DNA of 64,000 nucleotides from an uncultured Gammaproteobacteria bacterium (GTDB lineage: Bacteria > Pseudomonadota > Gammaproteobacteria > JACCXJ01): assembly GCA_963764725.1 (NCBI GenBank), contig CAVXTM010000013.1:1-64000 (forward strand), given 5' to 3'. Both the position numbers and the translations under genes were made by a program. Under the pieces are notes generated by a model, which made no database searches, had not been told where the DNA came from, and worked only from the letters and a program-made list of their open reading frames with translations. Of this stretch, positions 3,080-52,848 are shown in pieces. Positions within the stretch are counted from its first letter, which is position 1, and every line of letters begins with the position of its first letter.

Positions 3080-4138
3080 CTAGCCGAAATTGATCTTGGC
3101 CTCAAGGTTAGTACGCGAGTCCGCGTTGTTCAAAGCCTCTTCCAATTCGATGCGTCCTTCCTTAAAAAGGTTGTATAACGCCATGTCAAAGGTCTGCATA
3201 CCTTTGACGCCGCTACCCTCCATAGCTTCCTTGATCTTCTCGAGCTCTCCTTTGAGGACCAGATCAGCGATATGCGGCGTATTGACCAATATCTCCACCG
3301 CCGCACAGCGCTTGGCGTCGATACCTTGCACTAGGCGTTGCGAGATAATGGCCCGAACGTTAATAGCGAGATCCATGAACAACTGTTCACGCGCTTCGAG
3401 GGGAAATAGATTGATCACGCGTTCTAAGGCTTGATTCGCGTTGTTGGCGTGCAGCGTCGATAAACACAGATGGCCCGTGTTGCAGAGCTCGATTGCGGCT
3501 TCCATCGTCTCTCGATCCCGAACCTCGCCGATCAGAATCACATCCGGCGCTTCTCGCAGCGCACTCCTCAGCGCATGCCGGTACGATTTAGTATCGATCC
3601 CGATTTCTCGCTGGTTAATGATGGACTTAACATTAGGATGGGAGAACTCGACGGGATCTTCGATGGTTAGAATGTGACTGCTTGAATCGTGATTCCTATG
3701 CCCGATCATGGCGGCGAGCGTTGTCGATTTTCCTGATCCCGTCGCACCCACCATAAGAATAAGGCCTCGCTTGTACATGACGAGAGGCTTGAGGATCTGC
3801 GGCAAGGCTAATTCGTCGATCGTGGGAATCTTGGTGGGAATACGCCGTAACACCATGGCGATCTCCCCTCGCTGCCGGAACACATTGACACGAAAACGCG
3901 CCGATTCGTCTGCTAACGCGATGGCGAAATCACACTCCCAATTCGCTTCAAACATCTCGACCTGATGCGGTTTCATGATCCCGTAGGCGGCCGCTTTCGT
4001 CATCTCGGCCGTCAACAAGGTCTTACCGACGGAACTCAGGTTCCCTTCGATATTAATCTTGACCGTCGCCCCGGAGGTAAAATGCAAATCGCTACCTCGC
4101 TTCTCGACCAAGAGCTTAAGGTACGGTATGATGTCCAT
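3080..4138 (-). CDS. PilT/PilU-family type IV pilus ATPase (second PilU-like paralogue)
   Basis: GATGSGKSTT, EDPVEF, ALREAPDVILIGEVRD, TGHLCLSTLHANN. Confidence 0.9.
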   Translation of the reverse strand: MDIIPYLKLLVEKRGSDLHFTSGATVKINIEGNLSSVGKTLLTAEMTKAAAYGIMKPHQVEMFEANWECDFAIALADESARFRVNVFRQRGEIAMVLRRIPTKIPTIDELALPQILKPLVMYKRGLILMVGATGSGKSTTLAAMIGHRNHDSSSHILTIEDPVEFSHPNVKSIINQREIGIDTKSYRHALRSALREAPDVILIGEVRDRETMEAAIELCNTGHLCLSTLHANNANQALERVINLFPLEAREQLFMDLAINVRAIISQRLVQGIDAKRCAAVEILVNTPHIADLVLKGELEKIKEAMEGSGVKGMQTFDMALYNLFKEGRIELEEALNNADSRTNLEAKINFG

Positions 4139-42252: not shown

Positions 42253-42375
42253 GCCCAACGGAGCGCGGGTTGAGCGGCGCCCCTTGACGGGGGAGGAAAG
42301 CGCAGCTTTCCGACCGAGTCATAGGGGCGAAGCCGCAAGCGCAGCGCCGCGGTGCCGCTCGAACGAGAGTTGGAC
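42253..42375 (-). repeat. Long attC (family shared with 46616 and 47568)
   Basis: GCCCAAC...GGAAAGCGCAGCTTTCCGACCGAGTCATAGGGGCGAAGCCGC...GTTGGAC. Confidence 0.8.
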
Positions 42376-44442: not shown

Positions 44443-44950
44443 GCCCAACGAATAAGCATTTATCCGTTGTGCGCAGGCGAGATACGCGAAACCGGCTCGG
44501 GCGCTAGCGCGCATGACGGATAAATGTCTGTTGGACTAAACCGCGACGGCACCGGGATTGTCAGTCTGGATCAGTTTGCTTATATAAGGGGATTGTATTC
44601 CCGGATAGGGAGTTTGTGGAAGTCGCAGGCGTGTAGGACGGATGGGTGGGTGGCCTCGGGCGGGAAAGCAGTTGCGTTTTGGCCGGTTCGTGCGGGCAAT
44701 TTGCGTGCGTGATCGTGGCTTTCTTACGGTCAAGGCGAGCGCATTCCCAGACCGCTCGGGGCCTGTCGAAAAGCCGGCTTTGTGTGCGCTTGGGCTGGTC
44801 AGGTGTCAGTGGTCAGCCTCCGTCAAAGCGTTTCGGCGCCAGGTGAGCGGTGATCCGCAGGTGGCCCTTCCGGCACAGCGGACAGGGGTAGCCGTCGAAA
44901 GGGGCTTGGCGTTCGCCACTGGCGGTCGGCTCGGGGGGCTGCTGCGCAGC
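44443..44950 (-). mobile_element. 3' end fragment of a Y2-transposase element (copy B) with terminal hairpin
   Basis: Closely similar to 50849-51350, including ATAAGCATTTATCCG...CGGATAAATGTCTGTTGGACTAAACCGCGACGGCACCGGG and the transposase tail FDGYPCP. Confidence 0.85.
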
Positions 44951-46144: not shown

Positions 46145-46597
46145 TTATGTCCACACCAAAACACCAAGCCATAGGCTTGCAACGAAAAGTGGAAATAAGA
46201 ACAGGAGCGACGTTTGCCTGAAGTGAAGGAAGCTCTTACGAACAGAAACCTCGAAATCAAACCCTTGCCGAAGAAATTTATCCTTTACTCGTTCCTCCAC
46301 GGTAGTTGTTCTCTTTCCGTGCTTCCTCATTGAAACGTAATCTTCCGCCCCCATTAATGCCCAAATACCAGCTACTACTACACCGACGATTGGGACTCCG
46401 TAAGCCAAGAACGGTTGTGTTGCTATTTTTTCGATTTGGCTAAGAAAGAAACCAAGAATTGCGATCTGTAATGTCAGAAACCAATTAAATCTATTCCATA
46501 CGCGGTCTGAATACTCGCTCAGAGCCGTCATTCGGACTTCATAGTAATGAATGAGGTCGCTAAGCGCGGCCTCGTTCTCTGTTTCCTGGTTATCCAC
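46145..46597 (-). CDS. Hypothetical 3-TM membrane protein (cassette, low GC)
   Basis: 150-aa ORF between two attC sites with three hydrophobic segments. Confidence 0.75.
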   Translation of the reverse strand: MDNQETENEAALSDLIHYYEVRMTALSEYSDRVWNRFNWFLTLQIAILGFFLSQIEKIATQPFLAYGVPIVGVVVAGIWALMGAEDYVSMRKHGKRTTTVEERVKDKFLRQGFDFEVSVRKSFLHFRQTSLLFLFPLFVASLWLGVLVWT

Positions 46598-46615: not shown

Positions 46616-46740
46616 GGCTAACGGAGCGCGAGTTGAGCGGCGGCGGCCCTTGACGGGGGAGGAAAGCGCAGCTTTCCGACCGAGTCATAGGGCGAAGCCG
46701 CAAGCGCAGCGCCGCGGTGCCGCTCGAACGAGAGTTGGAC
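46616..46740 (-). repeat. Long attC (same family as 42253)
   Basis: GGCTAAC...GTTGGAC, near-identical interior. Confidence 0.8.
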
Positions 46741-46955: not shown

Positions 46956-47083
46956 GTTCTGGCTTGAACTTTAGAAAAGAAGGCGACAATCTCCGCAGGA
47001 GACTTGCCGGCTAAGATACGAGCTTGCTCGTCGCGAACCTTGCGAAAAAATGCAACCGAATGAAATTCAGTTTTCCGTGGCAT
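46907..47083 (-). CDS. Small putative antitoxin overlapping the PIN gene; reads into attC
   Basis: MPRKTEFHSVAFFRKVRDEQARILAGKSPAEIVAFF. Confidence 0.6.
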   Translation of the reverse strand: MPRKTEFHSVAFFRKVRDEQARILAGKSPAEIVAFFSKVQARTPNKALHRTRQKAARR

Positions 47084-47537
47084 GGCTGATGACCTCCCGC
47101 GGGGAGTAAATGGTAAGTGGTTTGTAACCCTGTTCGATATTGACCGCGTTAAACGAGCGAATTTTATCGAGGCGCACGATATGCTTGAAATTCCAACTGA
47201 CGAGTACATCGACCTCCGCAATAGTGGCCAACGCGATGTGCAGCATGTCGTTGATGAATCTTTGTCCCAGGACGCTGCGCTCCACGTAACCTTGAACCAG
47301 AGACACGGCTTCTTCGTTGACGCGGATTAGCTCGCTAGGCAAGCCGAGCAATTCCTGGTGCAGAGATCTCACAAAATCAGGAGCAGGGATGACTTCTGCG
47401 GCGGTAACGTCGGAGACCACCGCGACATATCGACCCTGCCGGAAATCTTCCATCAAGCTTTCCGACCAAACCCGGAACTCGGGATCAAAGCATCCGCCAA
47501 TCACGGAGGTGTCAAGGTAAATGCGTAGCTTTTTCAC
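47067..47537 (-). CDS. PIN-domain (VapC-like) toxin
   Basis: IYLDTSVIGGCFDPEF, DMLHIALA, LVSWNFKHIV. Confidence 0.88.
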   Translation of the reverse strand: MKKLRIYLDTSVIGGCFDPEFRVWSESLMEDFRQGRYVAVVSDVTAAEVIPAPDFVRSLHQELLGLPSELIRVNEEAVSLVQGYVERSVLGQRFINDMLHIALATIAEVDVLVSWNFKHIVRLDKIRSFNAVNIEQGYKPLTIYSPREVISHATEN

Positions 47538-47567: not shown

Positions 47568-47698
47568 GCCCAACGGAGCGCGAGTTGAGCGGCGGCCCTT
47601 GACGGGGAAGGAAAGCGCAGCTTTCCGACCGAGTCATAGGGGCGAAGCCGCAAGCGCAGCGCGGCTGTTTGGGCGTCTGGTTCAGCGTGTTGTTGGGC
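47568..47698 (-). repeat. Long attC, apparently a hybrid of two sites
   Basis: First ~95 nt match the 42253 family, then GGCTGTTTGGGCGTCTGGTTCAGCGTGTTGTTGGGC. Confidence 0.65.
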
Positions 47699-47759
47699 GG
47701 CTTCACGGTCCGCTGATGGAGGATACCCGCCCACCCGGAACAAAACCGCGCGCTCATGC

Positions 47760-48571
47760 ACTCCCTCGAAGACCTGGCAGCAGGACTGGAACGTCAACTG
47801 CCAGGCCGTCCCCCGTGCCGAGGTTTCGATCGCCTATCTCGCTCCCTCCGTCTTCAAGGTGGCTATCTCGGATCACCGCATCCTCAAGGTCGAGGACGGA
47901 CGGGTCTCCTTCTCCTACAAAAAAACCGGTAGCGCTCGGTCGCGGACCCTGACCCTCGACGCCTTGGAGTTCATCCGCCGTTTCCTACACCACGTGTTGC
48001 CCAAAGGCTTTATGAAAGTCCGCTATTACGGCTTCCTCTCGCCCACCGCCAAGGTGCCCTTGGAGGACATCAAGGCCCTGGTCGAACTGGCCCATGGCTT
48101 CACCGTGACCGTGCCCGAGATTCGAGCTACCACCTTGGCCACAACCGACCTGTCAGGACTGCGGGGGACCACTCCGCTTCCACAGCTCACGGCGCATCCG
48201 CCGCCGCCCATTGATGCCACAAACGTCGGACCACCCGGCTCGACACGATCTCCAGCCCATGTGTAGCCCATAGCAACTTGCAAACGCCCGCGCTGCCGCC
48301 CGGTGTCTTCTTCGGGTCACGGCCTCCCTTTGCCTGCTACCCCTAATTCGCACCCTGAAAGGCATTATTAACAGGTCCCTAAATCCGATTACGATACCCA
48401 ACACCCAGATCCGACCGCCCTCTACTTCGGCTATCTCCAGCTCCCGATGCCCATAGCCACCACATCGCCCACCCTTCACCGAAGCAATCCCTTAATAAAG
48501 AACCCACCCAACACCGGGCTTCTTGAACATTGGATTGAAACGACCATCCATGGTCGTCTCAATCCTTACTG
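47760..48571 (+). mobile_element. 3' fragment of a second IS91-type Y2-transposase element (copy C), inverted relative to the array
   Basis: WQQDWNVNCQ..YLAPSVFKVAISDHRI..EFIRRFLHHVLPKGFMKVRYYGFL; ends CTTGAAC-ATT-GGATTGAAACGACCA/TGGTCGTCTCAATCC-TTACTG-GTT. Confidence 0.8.
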
Positions 48572-50214
48572 GTTAGTCCCTTATCCATGAAATCTTGTGC
48601 AAAAAAGCAAAGAGTGTCATGCGGTAGCGGTATTGAGAGCAGGCATGACTACATACTCTCGGATAGCGAGTGCGGTGCTGAGCACACGGCGACCGAATGT
48701 CGTGAGATAGTACTTGTAGCGATGTCCGATCTTTCTTGATGAGGCCATGGGTGCGCAAGCGTTTCAGCCAGTAGGAGGCACGGCCGGTGGAGAGATCCCG
48801 GAGATGGGCTCGGAGATCGGAGGCACGAAAGCCGCTGATGTTCCACTCCCCGCGGGCGAGGGTGATAAAAAGGCTATGGTCTTCACGGAGGAACAGATTG
48901 AAGCCCCGATAGGAGCGGTCTTTCTCGTACGGGTTTGGCCCTTTTGTCGATGGCGTGCAGAGCTGCATTGGGGTTATCGATGCTGGCCATGAAGCTGAGA
49001 TAGCGTTCATTGGCAGCATGCATCAGCTCTCGCAGATCGGGGAGGCTATAGATGTTTTTTCGCAGGGGTGCGAGTTTGAATTGCTTGCGCCCATTGCGTT
49101 GTTCCACCCAACGGTGGTGTTTGAAGAAGGAGACATCGTTGGCGGTGCATTCCACCCGTGCCATGAGACCGAATTTATCGTAGAGCTTGAGGCTAGCTGG
49201 TCCCATATGGTGGCGGATGCGTGTACCCTGAATGCGGGTGTGAAAATCATTACCGGCCTCCCCGGTGAAGGCCGAGGTGAGTTTGCGTCCCAAGAAGGTG
49301 GCGACGTGTTCTGCCTTGATGGCCTGGCACGGCGGTACGCACGATGGCTTGATAGAGGGGTTGGAAATCGGCCTGGCGACGGAAGATGACATCGGTCGAG
49401 AACTCCACCTGCATGAAGCTCCAGTGATAACCAGCGCGAAACTGACCCAAGATAGGACAGAAGCTTTTCGCCCATCTGTCCAAACGCCGATGCAAGCCTT
49501 TGGGATCGAGGCTATCGGCAAGCGCCTGAGCCTGTTGGGGATCGCCGATGGACAAGAAGGCATTATCGGCTCGCTCAAAGGCGATCCCCGCCTTTGCCAG
49601 TCGGTGGGCCAACCAGTGATGGCCGTTCAAGTAGACCTGCAGGCGAAACGGTGCCCAGGTGGGTACTCGGACATAACAGAGCCCGAAGATCTCATCGATG
49701 AAATAGAAGTAATAATGCAAACACTTGCCCGGGGTAGACTTCAAACGGGTCGTATGCTGAAGCTTGTCATGCCAGGGGCGATACGAAGGACAGGCCTCCA
49801 TCGCCGAGAAGATATGCACCAGCCCCGGGTGCTCACCGCGCAAAGCCAAAATCGCTTTGATCCGTTCTTCTTTACGAAACGCCTTGTAATGACGGATGAA
49901 TTCAATTTCCAAACACGCCTCAGCGGCCAGCCGCTCGGCATGGGTCCGAAGCTCCTCGCGCAGCGGTCTGCCCAGCGGGGGTAGTCAAACAGACGGATCC
50001 CCCGAGTACTCAGGTACCGGGCCATGGCCTCGGCATGGGCGATCTCCGGAAGCGTGCCGGTGATCACGATACGGTCAAAGCAACTCAGCACCGCGGCGAT
50101 CTTCTCTTGATGGCGTTCAACAAAGGGATTCATGGCGACGACCCATCTCAGTTTTTATTGCCCATCCGCCAGAATAGTACATTCAACACTTTGGTTCCGG
50201 CTATGCCGGGTTAG
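48572..50214 (-). mobile_element. Single-gene element bounded by GTTAG direct repeats at an attC core
   Basis: GTTAG at 48572-48576 and 50210-50214; terminal hairpin CCGGC-TAT-GCCGG; one ~500-aa gene. Confidence 0.7.
48617..50133 (-). pseudogene. Putative Rep_trans-like transposase with C-terminal winged helix, about 4 frameshifts
   Basis: MNPFVERHQEKIAAVLSCFDRIVITGTL / KCLHYYFYFID / QVEFSTDVIF / LKLYDKFGLMARVE / LKRLRTHGLIKK across ORFs 49741-50133, 49250-49912, 48883-49578, 48573-49019. Confidence 0.6.
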
Positions 50215-50824: not shown

Positions 50825-50848
50825 TCGTGAACCCCTGGGGATTGTGCG

Positions 50849-52617
50849 CCCTAACAAATAAGCATTTATCCGTCGTGCGCAGGCGATATACGCGAAACCG
50901 GCTCTGACGGTAGGGCGCATGACGGATAAATGTCTGTTGGACTAAACCGCGACGGCACCGGGGTTGCTGGTCTGGATCAGGTGTCCTTATTTTAGGGGAT
51001 TGTATTCCTTGGGAGGGAGCCGATGGAAGTCATGGGCGGTAGGAGGCGGTGCGTGGGGTGATCTGGAGCGAGCAAGCAGCGGCGTTTCGGTCCCGTGGGA
51101 GGGGGTGATTTTCATGAGGATCCTTGGCTTTTCTTAGGGACAAGGCGAGCGTATTCCCAGACCGCTCGGGGCCTGTCGAAACGCCGGCTTGGTGTGCGCT
51201 TGGGCTGGTCAGATGTCGGTGGTCAGCCTCCGTTAAAGCGTTTCGGCGCCAGGTAAGCGGTGACGCGCAGGTGGCCTTGGCGGCACTTCGGACAAGGGTA
51301 GCCGTCGAAGGGGACAGAAACTTGGGCGGTCGTCTCGGGTGGTTGCGCGGCGTTGATGGCTGCGCGTATAAAATCGAGGCGCTGAGCACGGCAGCGGTTA
51401 GCGAGAAAGCCGAAGTGGCGGATGCGCATGAAGCCCAAGGGCAGGACATGGAGCAGGAAGCGGCGCAGGAGCTCCTCGCCCGCGAGGGCCAACACCTTGT
51501 GGCGGTTACTGTCGCGGTAGTCCTTGTAGTCGAGCCGCACCTGATCGCCCTCCAAAGCGAGGATACGTGCATCGGTCAAGGCGATCCGGTGAGTGTAGCG
51601 GGCCAAATAGTTCACCACCGAGCCGGTATGAGTCAGCGATGGTTTGGAGTAGACCACCCAGTCGGTGGCCATCAGGGTATCGAGCACCGCACCGATCTGC
51701 GCCGGATCGCTAAGACGCGGAAGTTTGCCGTCCTCGATCTCTTGGCGCAGGCGGCTGACGAAGCCGCCGCGGACATGGCGCGAGAGTGCCCGCACCGGAA
51801 ACAGGTAGGTGCTCTTAGCCGGATGCCATCGGCCCTGGGGTGAGAAGGCACCTCCCGGGACCAAGCAATGCAGATGCACGTGCTGGCTCAAGGTCTGTCC
51901 CCAGGTGTGTAGCACCGCGGTCATCCCGAGCTCGCCGCCGAGGCGTTTAGGATCGGCGCCGAAGCGAGATAACGTGGCCCACACCGTCTGGAACAGGAGC
52001 CCGTAGATCACCTCGGGGTGGAGTTGTACCCAGGGGTTCAGCTCATGCGGCAGGGTGATCACCAGATGATGGTAGGTGACCGGCAGCACGGCCGCTTGTT
52101 GCCGCTCGCACCAGGCTTGTGAAGCCCGGCGTTGGCAGCGCGGACAGTGCCGGTCGCGGGGGTTGGTGCAGGCGCTGAGGATCCGCCCGACCTCGGCGCG
52201 AGTCAGCAACTCCGGGATGCGCTGGGCCTTCTTCGGGATCGGGATGTCAACAGCGAAGGCCGGCCAGTCAAGTACCTGCAGATACAAAAAACGGATACCG
52301 TGCAGAAACACCCGGCAGCTTGCACCCGACAAAGACCGCTCGGTGGCCAGGTACTCGAAATAGCCACGGATCTCGTCAATCCCAATCTTATCCGGGGAGC
52401 GGTGGACATGGCGTGCCAGATCCGTCACAGCGGCCAAGTAGCTTTCGTGAGTTCGGACCGAGAAGCCACGCACCTGCATGGCTTTGATCATCTGCGCGCG
52501 TAATGGGGTCATCGTTCGTCTCCTCTGAAAAAGACCCGAATGGGCCTCTCGGGAGTTTGAACGATGCAACTACGAAGGGAGAATCAGATAAGGCTCCGCG
52601 AAGCGGTTTAGTTCAAC
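50849..52617 (-). mobile_element. Tyrosine-recombinase + IS91-type Y2-transposase element (copy A) in the first array position
   Basis: 14/15 inverted repeat GTTGGACTAAACCGC (50936) versus GCGGTTTAGTTCAAC (ends 52617), plus terminal hairpin 50856-50935. Confidence 0.8.
51223..52512 (-). CDS. In-frame fusion of integrase N-terminal SAM-like domain and IS91-family transposase
   Basis: MTPLRAQM...RTHESY...RIPELLT...CTNP joined to RDRHCPRCQ...LHTWG..HVHLHC (HUH)...YLARY (Y2)...RFLLHVLP.GF.RIRHFG. Confidence 0.85.
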   Translation of the reverse strand: MTPLRAQMIKAMQVRGFSVRTHESYLAAVTDLARHVHRSPDKIGIDEIRGYFEYLATERSLSGASCRVFLHGIRFLYLQVLDWPAFAVDIPIPKKAQRIPELLTRAEVGRILSACTNPRDRHCPRCQRRASQAWCERQQAAVLPVTYHHLVITLPHELNPWVQLHPEVIYGLLFQTVWATLSRFGADPKRLGGELGMTAVLHTWGQTLSQHVHLHCLVPGGAFSPQGRWHPAKSTYLFPVRALSRHVRGGFVSRLRQEIEDGKLPRLSDPAQIGAVLDTLMATDWVVYSKPSLTHTGSVVNYLARYTHRIALTDARILALEGDQVRLDYKDYRDSNRHKVLALAGEELLRRFLLHVLPLGFMRIRHFGFLANRCRAQRLDFIRAAINAAQPPETTAQVSVPFDGYPCPKCRQGHLRVTAYLAPKRFNGG

Positions 52618-52680
52618 ATGTAATGGGCGGCCGATCTGCCGCCTTGTTTTGCGGCGCGGCCCCTCTACTCGCCACCCAAT
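52611..52680 (-). other. Putative attI region
   Basis: Minus-strand GTTGAAC core between the array and the intI promoter; extent is inferred. Confidence 0.5.
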
Positions 52681-52754
52681 ATACAGCTCCGTCAATCGCG
52701 TGCAGTCCGATCATGAGGGAGTCGTGAGGAGAGCTAGGCGGCGGTAGCGATCGA

Positions 52755-52786
52755 CTGTTGAGGCACACAGGGGCGCGCCGTAGTAT
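52755..52786 (+). promoter_or_regulatory. intI promoter with overlapping LexA box
   Basis: CTGT-TGAGGCAC-ACAG at 52755-52770; TTGAGG-17 nt-TAGTAT. Confidence 0.75.
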
Positions 52787-52848
52787 TCTGCGGCAAGAGC
52801 GGGACGGTTCAGGGGGTCCATTATAGCTATCAAAGGATTACAAAAAAA

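Follow-up and report, generated by a model that had tools for sequence, protein, structure and literature searches.

An IS91-family element with integron cassette-like ends at the attI site of a decayed gammaproteobacterial integron

Integrons rank among the major routes of gene acquisition and gene shuffling in bacteria. To our knowledge, specialisation on their attC sites is restricted to two kinds of mobile element, namely, IS1111-attC elements and group IIC-attC introns, both of which occupy integron attC sites in a fixed position and orientation. Rolling-circle transposons of the IS91 family are found in ISfinder with members that carry an integrase gene upstream of the transposase gene, among them ISShvi3 and ISSod25. 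Here, we describe an element with this two-gene layout (the likeness to ISShvi3 and ISSod25 is drawn from their descriptions) in the genome of an uncultured gammaproteobacterium. It lies at attI of a decayed integron within a 64,000-nt stretch of contig CAVXTM010000013.1, referred to as the window; element coordinates are window positions, and the element is read on the minus strand. It is assigned to an IS91-family subgroup in which the HUH-Y2 transposase gene is preceded by a gene for a predicted tyrosine recombinase of Xer/IntI-like type. We show that the family to which it belongs has a fixed left end, a fixed right end, and a position at integron core sites in cassette orientation.

The IS91 family (IS91, IS801, and IS1294/IS1294b) and the focal element have in common an HUH-Y2 transposase, unlike ends with subterminal palindromes, the absence of a target duplication, a short specific target that repeats the terminal nucleotides of the element, and, as predicted for the focal element, a bottom-strand single-stranded circle as the intermediate. 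According to a description of the family, IS91 inserts from such a bottom-strand circle, the ends carry a terminal tetranucleotide resembling the target and subterminal palindromes on both sides, and the known targets are GTTC, CTTG, and GTCC (PMC13181058). Unlike these members, the focal element has a tyrosine recombinase gene, a 15-bp repeat shared by the left end and the subterminal right end, and cassette-like boundaries, and its target is GTT/AAC in integron cores (the bottom strand reads YAAC in all 20 GTT-ending copies) instead of one of these three tetranucleotides; GTCC and GTTC are present in the element, but 3 nt inside the repeat arms. Another paper contains a passing remark on an IS91-family element with an integrase gene, the ISShvi3 case, treated there as a single curiosity, and mentions IS1111-attC elements and group IIC-attC introns (PMC9229058).

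With integron cassettes and attC sites, the element shares G|TT boundaries, inverse AAC/GTT boxes that pair with each other in a circle, a stem whose loop varies, indications of bottom-strand folding, and the first-cassette position at attI; once the ends are joined, GTCCAAC pairs with GTTGAAC in the manner of an R''/R' box pairing. It differs from them in the lack of extrahelical bases, in spacers of 3 and 7 nt (about 5 and 6 nt in attC), in an R-box pairing stretched to 15 bp with L boxes unrelated to the R boxes, in carrying its own mobility genes, and in being multicopy. IS1111-attC elements and group IIC-attC introns rely on other enzymes (a DDE transposase and a reverse transcriptase plus ribozyme, respectively) and interrupt attC, whereas the focal element imitates a cassette. 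A further parallel, mentioned in PMC9345347, is the CTX phage, whose single-stranded DNA folds and is integrated by XerCD at dif. Here, too, a Xer-type tyrosine recombinase acts on a hairpin of single-stranded DNA made by rolling-circle replication, which for the focal element is a proposal only; the CTX system differs in its host-encoded recombinases, its dif target, and its being a phage rather than an insertion sequence.

Read away from attI, the element begins with GTTGAAC-TAAACCGC from position 52617 down, continues with the palindrome CCGC-TTC-GCGG and a single long open reading frame (ORF), and, after a noncoding tail of about 270 nt 3' of this ORF, ends with the inverted copy GCGGTTTA-GTCCAAC, 3 nt (AGA), a hairpin, 7 nt, and GTT (Table 1). 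The outline had been recognized in a first-pass annotation of the window, made from the sequence alone. Its GTTGAAC core at the attI position is found on the minus strand at 52617 to 52611, and its figure of 14/15 for the inverted repeat into which the cores extend is correct, the repeat finder giving 16-nt arms at 94%. Other details needed adjustment: the hairpin is present, with a length of about 70 nt instead of about 80 nt; the terminal GTT lies at 50855 to 50853, and the proposed element start at 50849 takes in 4 nt of the next cassette; and the spacer geometry is noncanonical, with 3 and 7 nt rather than 1 to 2 nt.

Both ends are borne by the element. Relatives are encoded at 27 loci in other genomes, several of which hold 2 to 3 copies, and eight loci in other genomes display both ends, 2,391 to 2,586 nt apart, with different DNA outside. 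The left end GTTGAAC-TAA(A/T/G)CCGC is kept in 16 of 17 copies and is preceded by unrelated DNA, and the palindrome CCGC-NNN-GCGG recurs in most related left ends as well as in the second family described below. The right repeat was found in 19 related loci, 18 of which have also kept the hairpin. Similarity among 21 aligned right ends stops at the terminal GTT, present in 20 of them; the next base is a purine in all 20, and strict RRRY follows in 10 of the 20 (1/16 expected). Read on the bottom strand, these 20 GTT-ending copies all have CAAC as their end, with TAAC or CAAC in front of the element. Apart from the shared GTT, no direct repeat was detected at the boundaries of the both-ended relatives. 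Since the same two ends recur in relatives with different flanking DNA, the hairpin belongs to the element and not to the host. Comparing the ends and targets of full-length homologues was the check that the first-pass annotation had in mind, and its outcome, both ends recurring amid unrelated flanks with GTT and a purine after the right end, speaks for that annotation: in the aligned homologues, the hairpin is not a host attC and the elements are not independent of the cores. The imitation of a cassette at attI is real and characterizes the family.

The position of the window copy can be read from C15, a sister integron on contig 15 of the same genome, which encodes an intact IntI. Identity between the two loci reaches ...CAT|GTTG and then gives way to divergence, which places the element exactly at the attI crossover, the position named in the first-pass annotation, and in cassette orientation, with G|TT boundaries at both ends. 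Beyond the element, the minus-strand cassette array continues with canonical attCs (46955-46892, 42464-42358, 41702-41619, 40253-40185, and 36766-36671), detected by a fold-based scan that gave 0 hits in shuffled sequence; a home-made scan by box complementarity produced as many hits in shuffled as in real sequence and was dropped. The host attCs show two single-base bulges and are unlike the element's hairpin, and the idea that this hairpin is the array's common attC was rejected. A full-length relative with 76% identity occupies the second cassette position of an intact integron, whose integron integrase is annotated, on pTs485, a complete plasmid of "Ca. Thiodictyon syntrophicum," where it directly follows a canonical attC in cassette orientation and is itself followed by more cassettes. 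Cassette orientation was seen in 10 focal-family copies (copies A and B of the window, L023, L024, L025, L026, L027, L032, L036, and L132), an ambiguous hairpin at L034 reads the opposite way, and the fold-based scan found no attC in the flanks of the remaining focal-family loci. No intI was located within 4 kb of the relatives at the 27 loci. Seven of the relatives' genomes were searched for IntI; three had none above the model cutoff, and four had one on another contig.

The arms of the right-end hairpin have changed together. Across the 21 copies, 7 of 18 pairs change on both sides, 92.3% of the cells are paired, and the observed covariation score was reached by 0 of 500 shuffles; slid controls gave 17 to 45% pairing. 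The first 10 to 12 bp are perfectly paired throughout, with no extrahelical bases. Non-Watson-Crick cells number 28; 21 of them read A·C or C·A on the top (gene-sense) strand, corresponding to G·T on the bottom strand, and none is G·T on the top strand; counted on the bottom strand, pairing amounts to 98.1%, versus 92.3% on the top strand. Within the 15-bp stem that the left end can form with the right repeat, covariation is seen at position 5 (T-A, A-T, and C-G), and all mismatches but one among 10 elements are top-strand A·C, that is, bottom-strand G·T. The joined ends fold with -43.7 kcal/mol (z -7.5) on the bottom strand versus -36.0 kcal/mol (z -5.4) on the top strand, the minimum-energy fold leaving a 5 x 1 nt internal loop. 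These data show that both stems are under selection and provide moderate evidence for a meeting of the two ends and for their acting as bottom-strand DNA in folded form. The joined-end fold, the covariation, and the strand-specific G·T pairs also lend indirect support to the first-pass suggestion that a circular junction would fold as a lengthened stem.

A second family combining a recombinase with an IS91-type transposase is present in the same genome in 5 full copies of about 2.5 kb with 91 to 99.9% mutual identity (L008 to L012, on contigs 7, 9, 10 [two copies], and 15). Its transposase is 38 to 40% identical to the focal one. The left end consists of GTTCAAG-TAAGCCGC plus a palindrome, and the right end consists of CTTGAAC, 3 nt, a hairpin, 6 nt, and GTT, a design shared by 23 distinct hairpins of this family. 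All 5 copies that could be assessed sit at the R'' box of host attCs, inverted with respect to the array, and the copies on contigs 7 and 15 share the strand of intI, in agreement with this inverted orientation. The wobble bias recurs with 18 bottom-strand versus 3 top-strand cases. Of 252 candidate stretches, 216 encode a relative of this sister family. Individual genomes carry many copies, and such relatives are very numerous in Desulfobacterota, Nitrospirota, and other phyla, at least 12 copies being present in one Desulfobacterium chromosome. This wide distribution implies that such elements may shape cassette arrays in environmental bacteria. At L063, in a Desulfovibrio metagenome-assembled genome, a second-family right end (about 3885 to 3960) is followed at once by a second solo repeat and hairpin, which looks like tandem or orphan hairpins.

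Full-length relatives of the focal element carry recombinases of 282 to 290 amino acids and transposases with both the Zn_Tnp_IS91 and Y2_Tnp domains. In L025, the both-ended relative for which ORFs were listed, the two genes are intact and overlap (282 and 379 amino acids, respectively); a 92-amino-acid ORF upstream of this copy matched no Pfam family. XerA and integron-integrase models describe the recombinases best, the latter being matched in two stretches, of which the first ends at about position 180, without the extra domain of IntI; the sister-family recombinase correspondingly covers model positions 9 to 180 and 224 to 307. An assignment of the element recombinase as an integron integrase was rejected on account of this missing IntI-specific domain and of scores of 171 to 180 bits, below the TIGR02249 cutoff of 265.

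The window copy itself is shorter than the 8 complete relatives (1,765 nt versus 2,391 to 2,586 nt). The intact recombinase and Y2-transposase gene pair assumed in the first-pass annotation is not there, an internal deletion of about 670 to 750 nt having fused both genes into the single ORF from 52512 to 51223. In its product, P0001, residues 20 to 138 correspond to residues 1 to 119 of the 282-residue L025 recombinase, and residues 138 to 448 correspond to residues 62 to 372 of the 379-residue L025 transposase, of which the first 61 residues are gone. Pfam matches comprise Phage_int_SAM_4 (9.8e-17, residues 23 to 101), a complete Y2_Tnp (2.1e-56), and only the last 36 positions of Zn_Tnp_IS91 (positions 55 to 90); the NCBIfam IS91 transposase model NF033538 is matched at positions 59 to 355 of 356 (1.9e-103), its first 58 positions missing, and the integron-integrase and Xer models are matched over their first ~115 positions only. 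The transposase part retains the HxH and YxxxY motifs, and the recombinase part is reduced to the SAM-like N-terminal domain without the catalytic domain. With the catalytic domain of the recombinase and the N terminus of the transposase lost, we conclude from the ORF that the window copy is a decayed, nonautonomous IS91-family copy, which would be mobile only in trans. The description as an autonomous selfish cassette therefore fails for this copy, which has no catalytic residue of the recombinase and no N-terminal zinc-binding half of the transposase.

How do intact members move? We favor the reading that the window holds a decayed IS91-family copy with cassette-imitating ends whose intact relatives move as a folded bottom-strand circle joined by a tyrosine recombinase, and we give it a probability of roughly 55%. 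The HUH transposase of an intact member would produce the bottom-strand single-stranded circle; in this circle the two ends would pair as the 15-bp stem and, together with the hairpin, yield an attC-like fold with an asymmetric internal loop; and a tyrosine recombinase would exchange strands with an attI or attC core at AA|C (top strand G|TT), located at the stem-loop border. IntI cuts attC at the same kind of place, the stem-loop border. As the joining enzyme we favor the Xer/IntI-like recombinase that the element itself encodes, for which host IntI might substitute, because the recombinase gene is coupled to tnpA in two deeply diverged families and because it is the Xer/IntI clade that is known to use folded single strands. 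The more far-reaching proposal that intact members are autonomous self-inserting cassettes, with an HUH-made circle, an attC-like fold, and their own IntI-like recombinase joining attI or attC cores, is one that we hold only tentatively, as a possibility.

Several observations weigh against the favored reading. The hairpin departs from a canonical attC in lacking the extrahelical bases used by IntI and in its 3- and 7-nt spacers. Among the metagenome contigs, which stop short of the element flanks, neither a circle nor a junction read nor an empty site was found, and the remnants on contigs 9 and 12 lie where the attC scan found none. The hairpin wobble cells are confined to four columns (34 to 37) in related sequences, and the 21 cells therefore do not represent 21 separate events. 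Stem position 8 of the sister family shows a conserved mismatch that takes several forms (10 A·C plus 7 others), and for this reason part of the G·T pattern may reflect a recognition feature rather than wobble tolerance. Finally, the attI position and the cassette orientation are exactly what IntI alone would give, and the junction geometry fits HUH cleavage after AAC equally well because both flanks share AAC.

The last point leads to a scheme in which the transposase alone cuts the bottom strand at both ends, each time after (Y)AAC, and inserts the circle 3' of YAAC, integron cores being abundant in this motif and the recombinase being an accessory factor, e.g., for regulation or dimer resolution. 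The right cut would then lie 7 nt 5' of the hairpin, in an oriIS-like arrangement, and the left cut 11 nt 3' of the small, terIS-like palindrome. Such a scheme agrees with the tetranucleotide ends, subterminal palindromes, and bottom-strand circle substrate reported for the IS91 family in PMC13181058, with the invariable CAAC end preceded by TAAC or CAAC (20 of 20 GTT-ending copies), and with remnants outside detectable arrays, and the inverted use of the top-strand AAC of R'' by the sister family suits a target made of sequence plus hairpin better than it suits IntI chemistry. However, the targets named in that source are GTTC, CTTG, and GTCC and not AAC, and the scheme leaves unexplained why a recombinase gene should be translationally coupled to tnpA in two families whose transposases are only 38 to 40% identical and why 15 bp of complementarity should be kept between the two ends. 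On balance, we regard transposition by the HUH enzyme alone as rather doubtful.

An ordinary integron cassette, i.e., a captured IS91-type gene pair with the hairpin as its attC and IntI alone as its mover, would account for the location exactly at the attI crossover, the pTs485 relative in the second position of an intact integron and in cassette orientation, the G|TT boundaries at both ends with inverse AAC and GTT triplets, and the availability of an intact IntI on C15 of the same genome. It is nevertheless unlikely in view of the 2 to 3 copies in several genomes and the lack of an IntI above the cutoff in 3 of 7 relatives' genomes, of a hairpin without extrahelical bases whose spacer asymmetry is opposite to that of the host attCs, and of complementarity that reaches 8 bp past the R box next to a terIS-like palindrome at the left end. 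The sister family, which has homologous ends, adds to this, since IntI would not produce its inverted insertion at R''; together with the copy numbers and the genomes lacking IntI above the cutoff, this speaks for machinery of the element's own over IntI alone. The location of the hairpin downstream of the transposase gene is also what a transcription terminator would show, and a terminator or host repeat with a coincidental terminal repeat was considered as well. This is very improbable: there is no T run after the hairpin, in each of 21 copies, taken from unrelated contexts, 7 nt separate the hairpin from the element boundary, and the host array attCs do not resemble it. We rejected the terminator because the wobble pairs lie on the antisense strand.

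An IS91-type element with a recombinase, cassette-imitating ends, and a location where cassettes insert would be a third kind of attC specialist and the first pairing of a single-strand-producing HUH enzyme with a recombinase of the clade acting on folded single strands; elements of this sort may link transposons and integrons. If intact members are indeed autonomous self-inserting cassettes, they would amount to a hybrid of a rolling-circle transposon and an integron cassette and could provide a source of new attC-like sites, as internal deletions would leave solo hairpins beside foreign genes, comparable to the two truncated copies in the window. A full-text literature search, which did not reach into ISfinder and TnPedia, yielded the one passing remark in PMC9229058 but no account of conserved cassette-like ends, of a rule for the target, of two opposite polarities, or of a signature of single-strand folding. 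The family offers a testable system for the origin of single-stranded cassette circles, for the action of non-IntI recombinases on integron sites, and for the birth of attC-like sites.

Table 1. Positions of the focal element, related copies, and the adjoining integron remnant in the window.
Feature	Position	Strand	Basis or remark
Left terminal core GTTGAAC	52611..52617	-	Adjoins the attI crossover point; homology with the attI side of the C15 integron ends here
Left end: inverted-repeat arm (52603-52618) and small subterminal palindrome CCGC-TTC-GCGG, terIS-like	52596..52618	-	Repeat finder; arm pairs with 50935-50950 over 16 nt, 94% complementary (15/16)
Fused ORF, 429 amino acids from ATG	51223..52512	-	Profile searches and comparison with a full-length relative
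Right subterminal inverted-repeat arm, ending in GTCCAAC (R''-like box)	50935..50950	-	Repeat finder and relatives
Right-end hairpin, conserved	50863..50932	-	Repeat finder and alignment; 18-nt arms 50863-50880 and 50915-50932, 94% complementary; 34-nt variable loop
Terminal GTT	50853..50855	-	Copy alignments, similarity to all other copies ends here; in three metagenome contigs of X8, similarity is lost at 50853
Second, 5'-truncated copy of the focal element (transposase tail, right repeat arm, hairpin, GTT)	44444..44903	-	84% identical to the window copy
Truncated second-family copy	47781..48575	+	Transposase fragment 47781-48092, CTTGAAC 48522-48528, hairpin 48532-48565, GTTA 48572-48575; opposite in orientation to the array
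attI and intI-promoter region of the decayed integron	52618..52848	+	Near-identical to the region upstream of intact intI on C15
intI pseudogene, 284 amino acids	52849..53703	+	TIGR02249 positions 1-208 and 274-313 only; about 65 model positions missing, including the IntI-specific domain

Further copies of the focal element occur in the same genome. Between the two copies in the window, similarity passes through the hairpin and ends right after GTT. Contig 9 has a deletion derivative with a short loop, contig 18 has a 50-nt piece, and contig 12 has a remnant (L004, 259681 to 259787) comprising only the first 107 nt of the left end, outside any detectable array. The DNA directly before the GTT of L004 faintly resembles the 3' arm of the element's own hairpin, which may be a leftover head-to-tail junction or chance.

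None of the sequencing runs contained more than 29% of the sampled words; X1, X5, X6, and X8 are contigs from cave, soil, and sediment metagenomes. In these four runs, the depth of look-alike contigs begins abruptly at the hairpin and is near zero on the neighboring cassette. The summed depth over the hairpin part (50846 to 50936) exceeds that over the rest of the element severalfold. Internal skips in single contigs (50949 to 52597 and 51637 to 52369) are weak hints of further deletion derivatives; the contig that joins 50949 to 52597 might represent a mini-element of two ends only.

The decayed integron is a near-duplicate of the contig-15 integron (contig 15, 164702 to 165643), with the same intI N terminus and the same attI region, and further intI sequences in this genome are a contig-7 copy interrupted by one stop codon and a contig-12 fragment. 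The array mixes at least two types of attC, including long ones of about 125 nt (46617 to 46738, 47570 to 47700, and 42280 to 42326) with a near-identical inner palindrome. One cassette beyond the neighbor of the element, the minus-strand cassette at 48620 to 50133 contains a gene broken into several overlapping frames without a match to a Pfam family, and its R'' box is adjoined by the second-family fragment. Among the other minus-strand cassettes, the one at 47067 to 47537 shows a weak PIN-domain match (E value, 0.0038, below the curated cutoff), and the one at 46145 to 46597 encodes an 8xMP membrane protein (PF24838, 4e-13).

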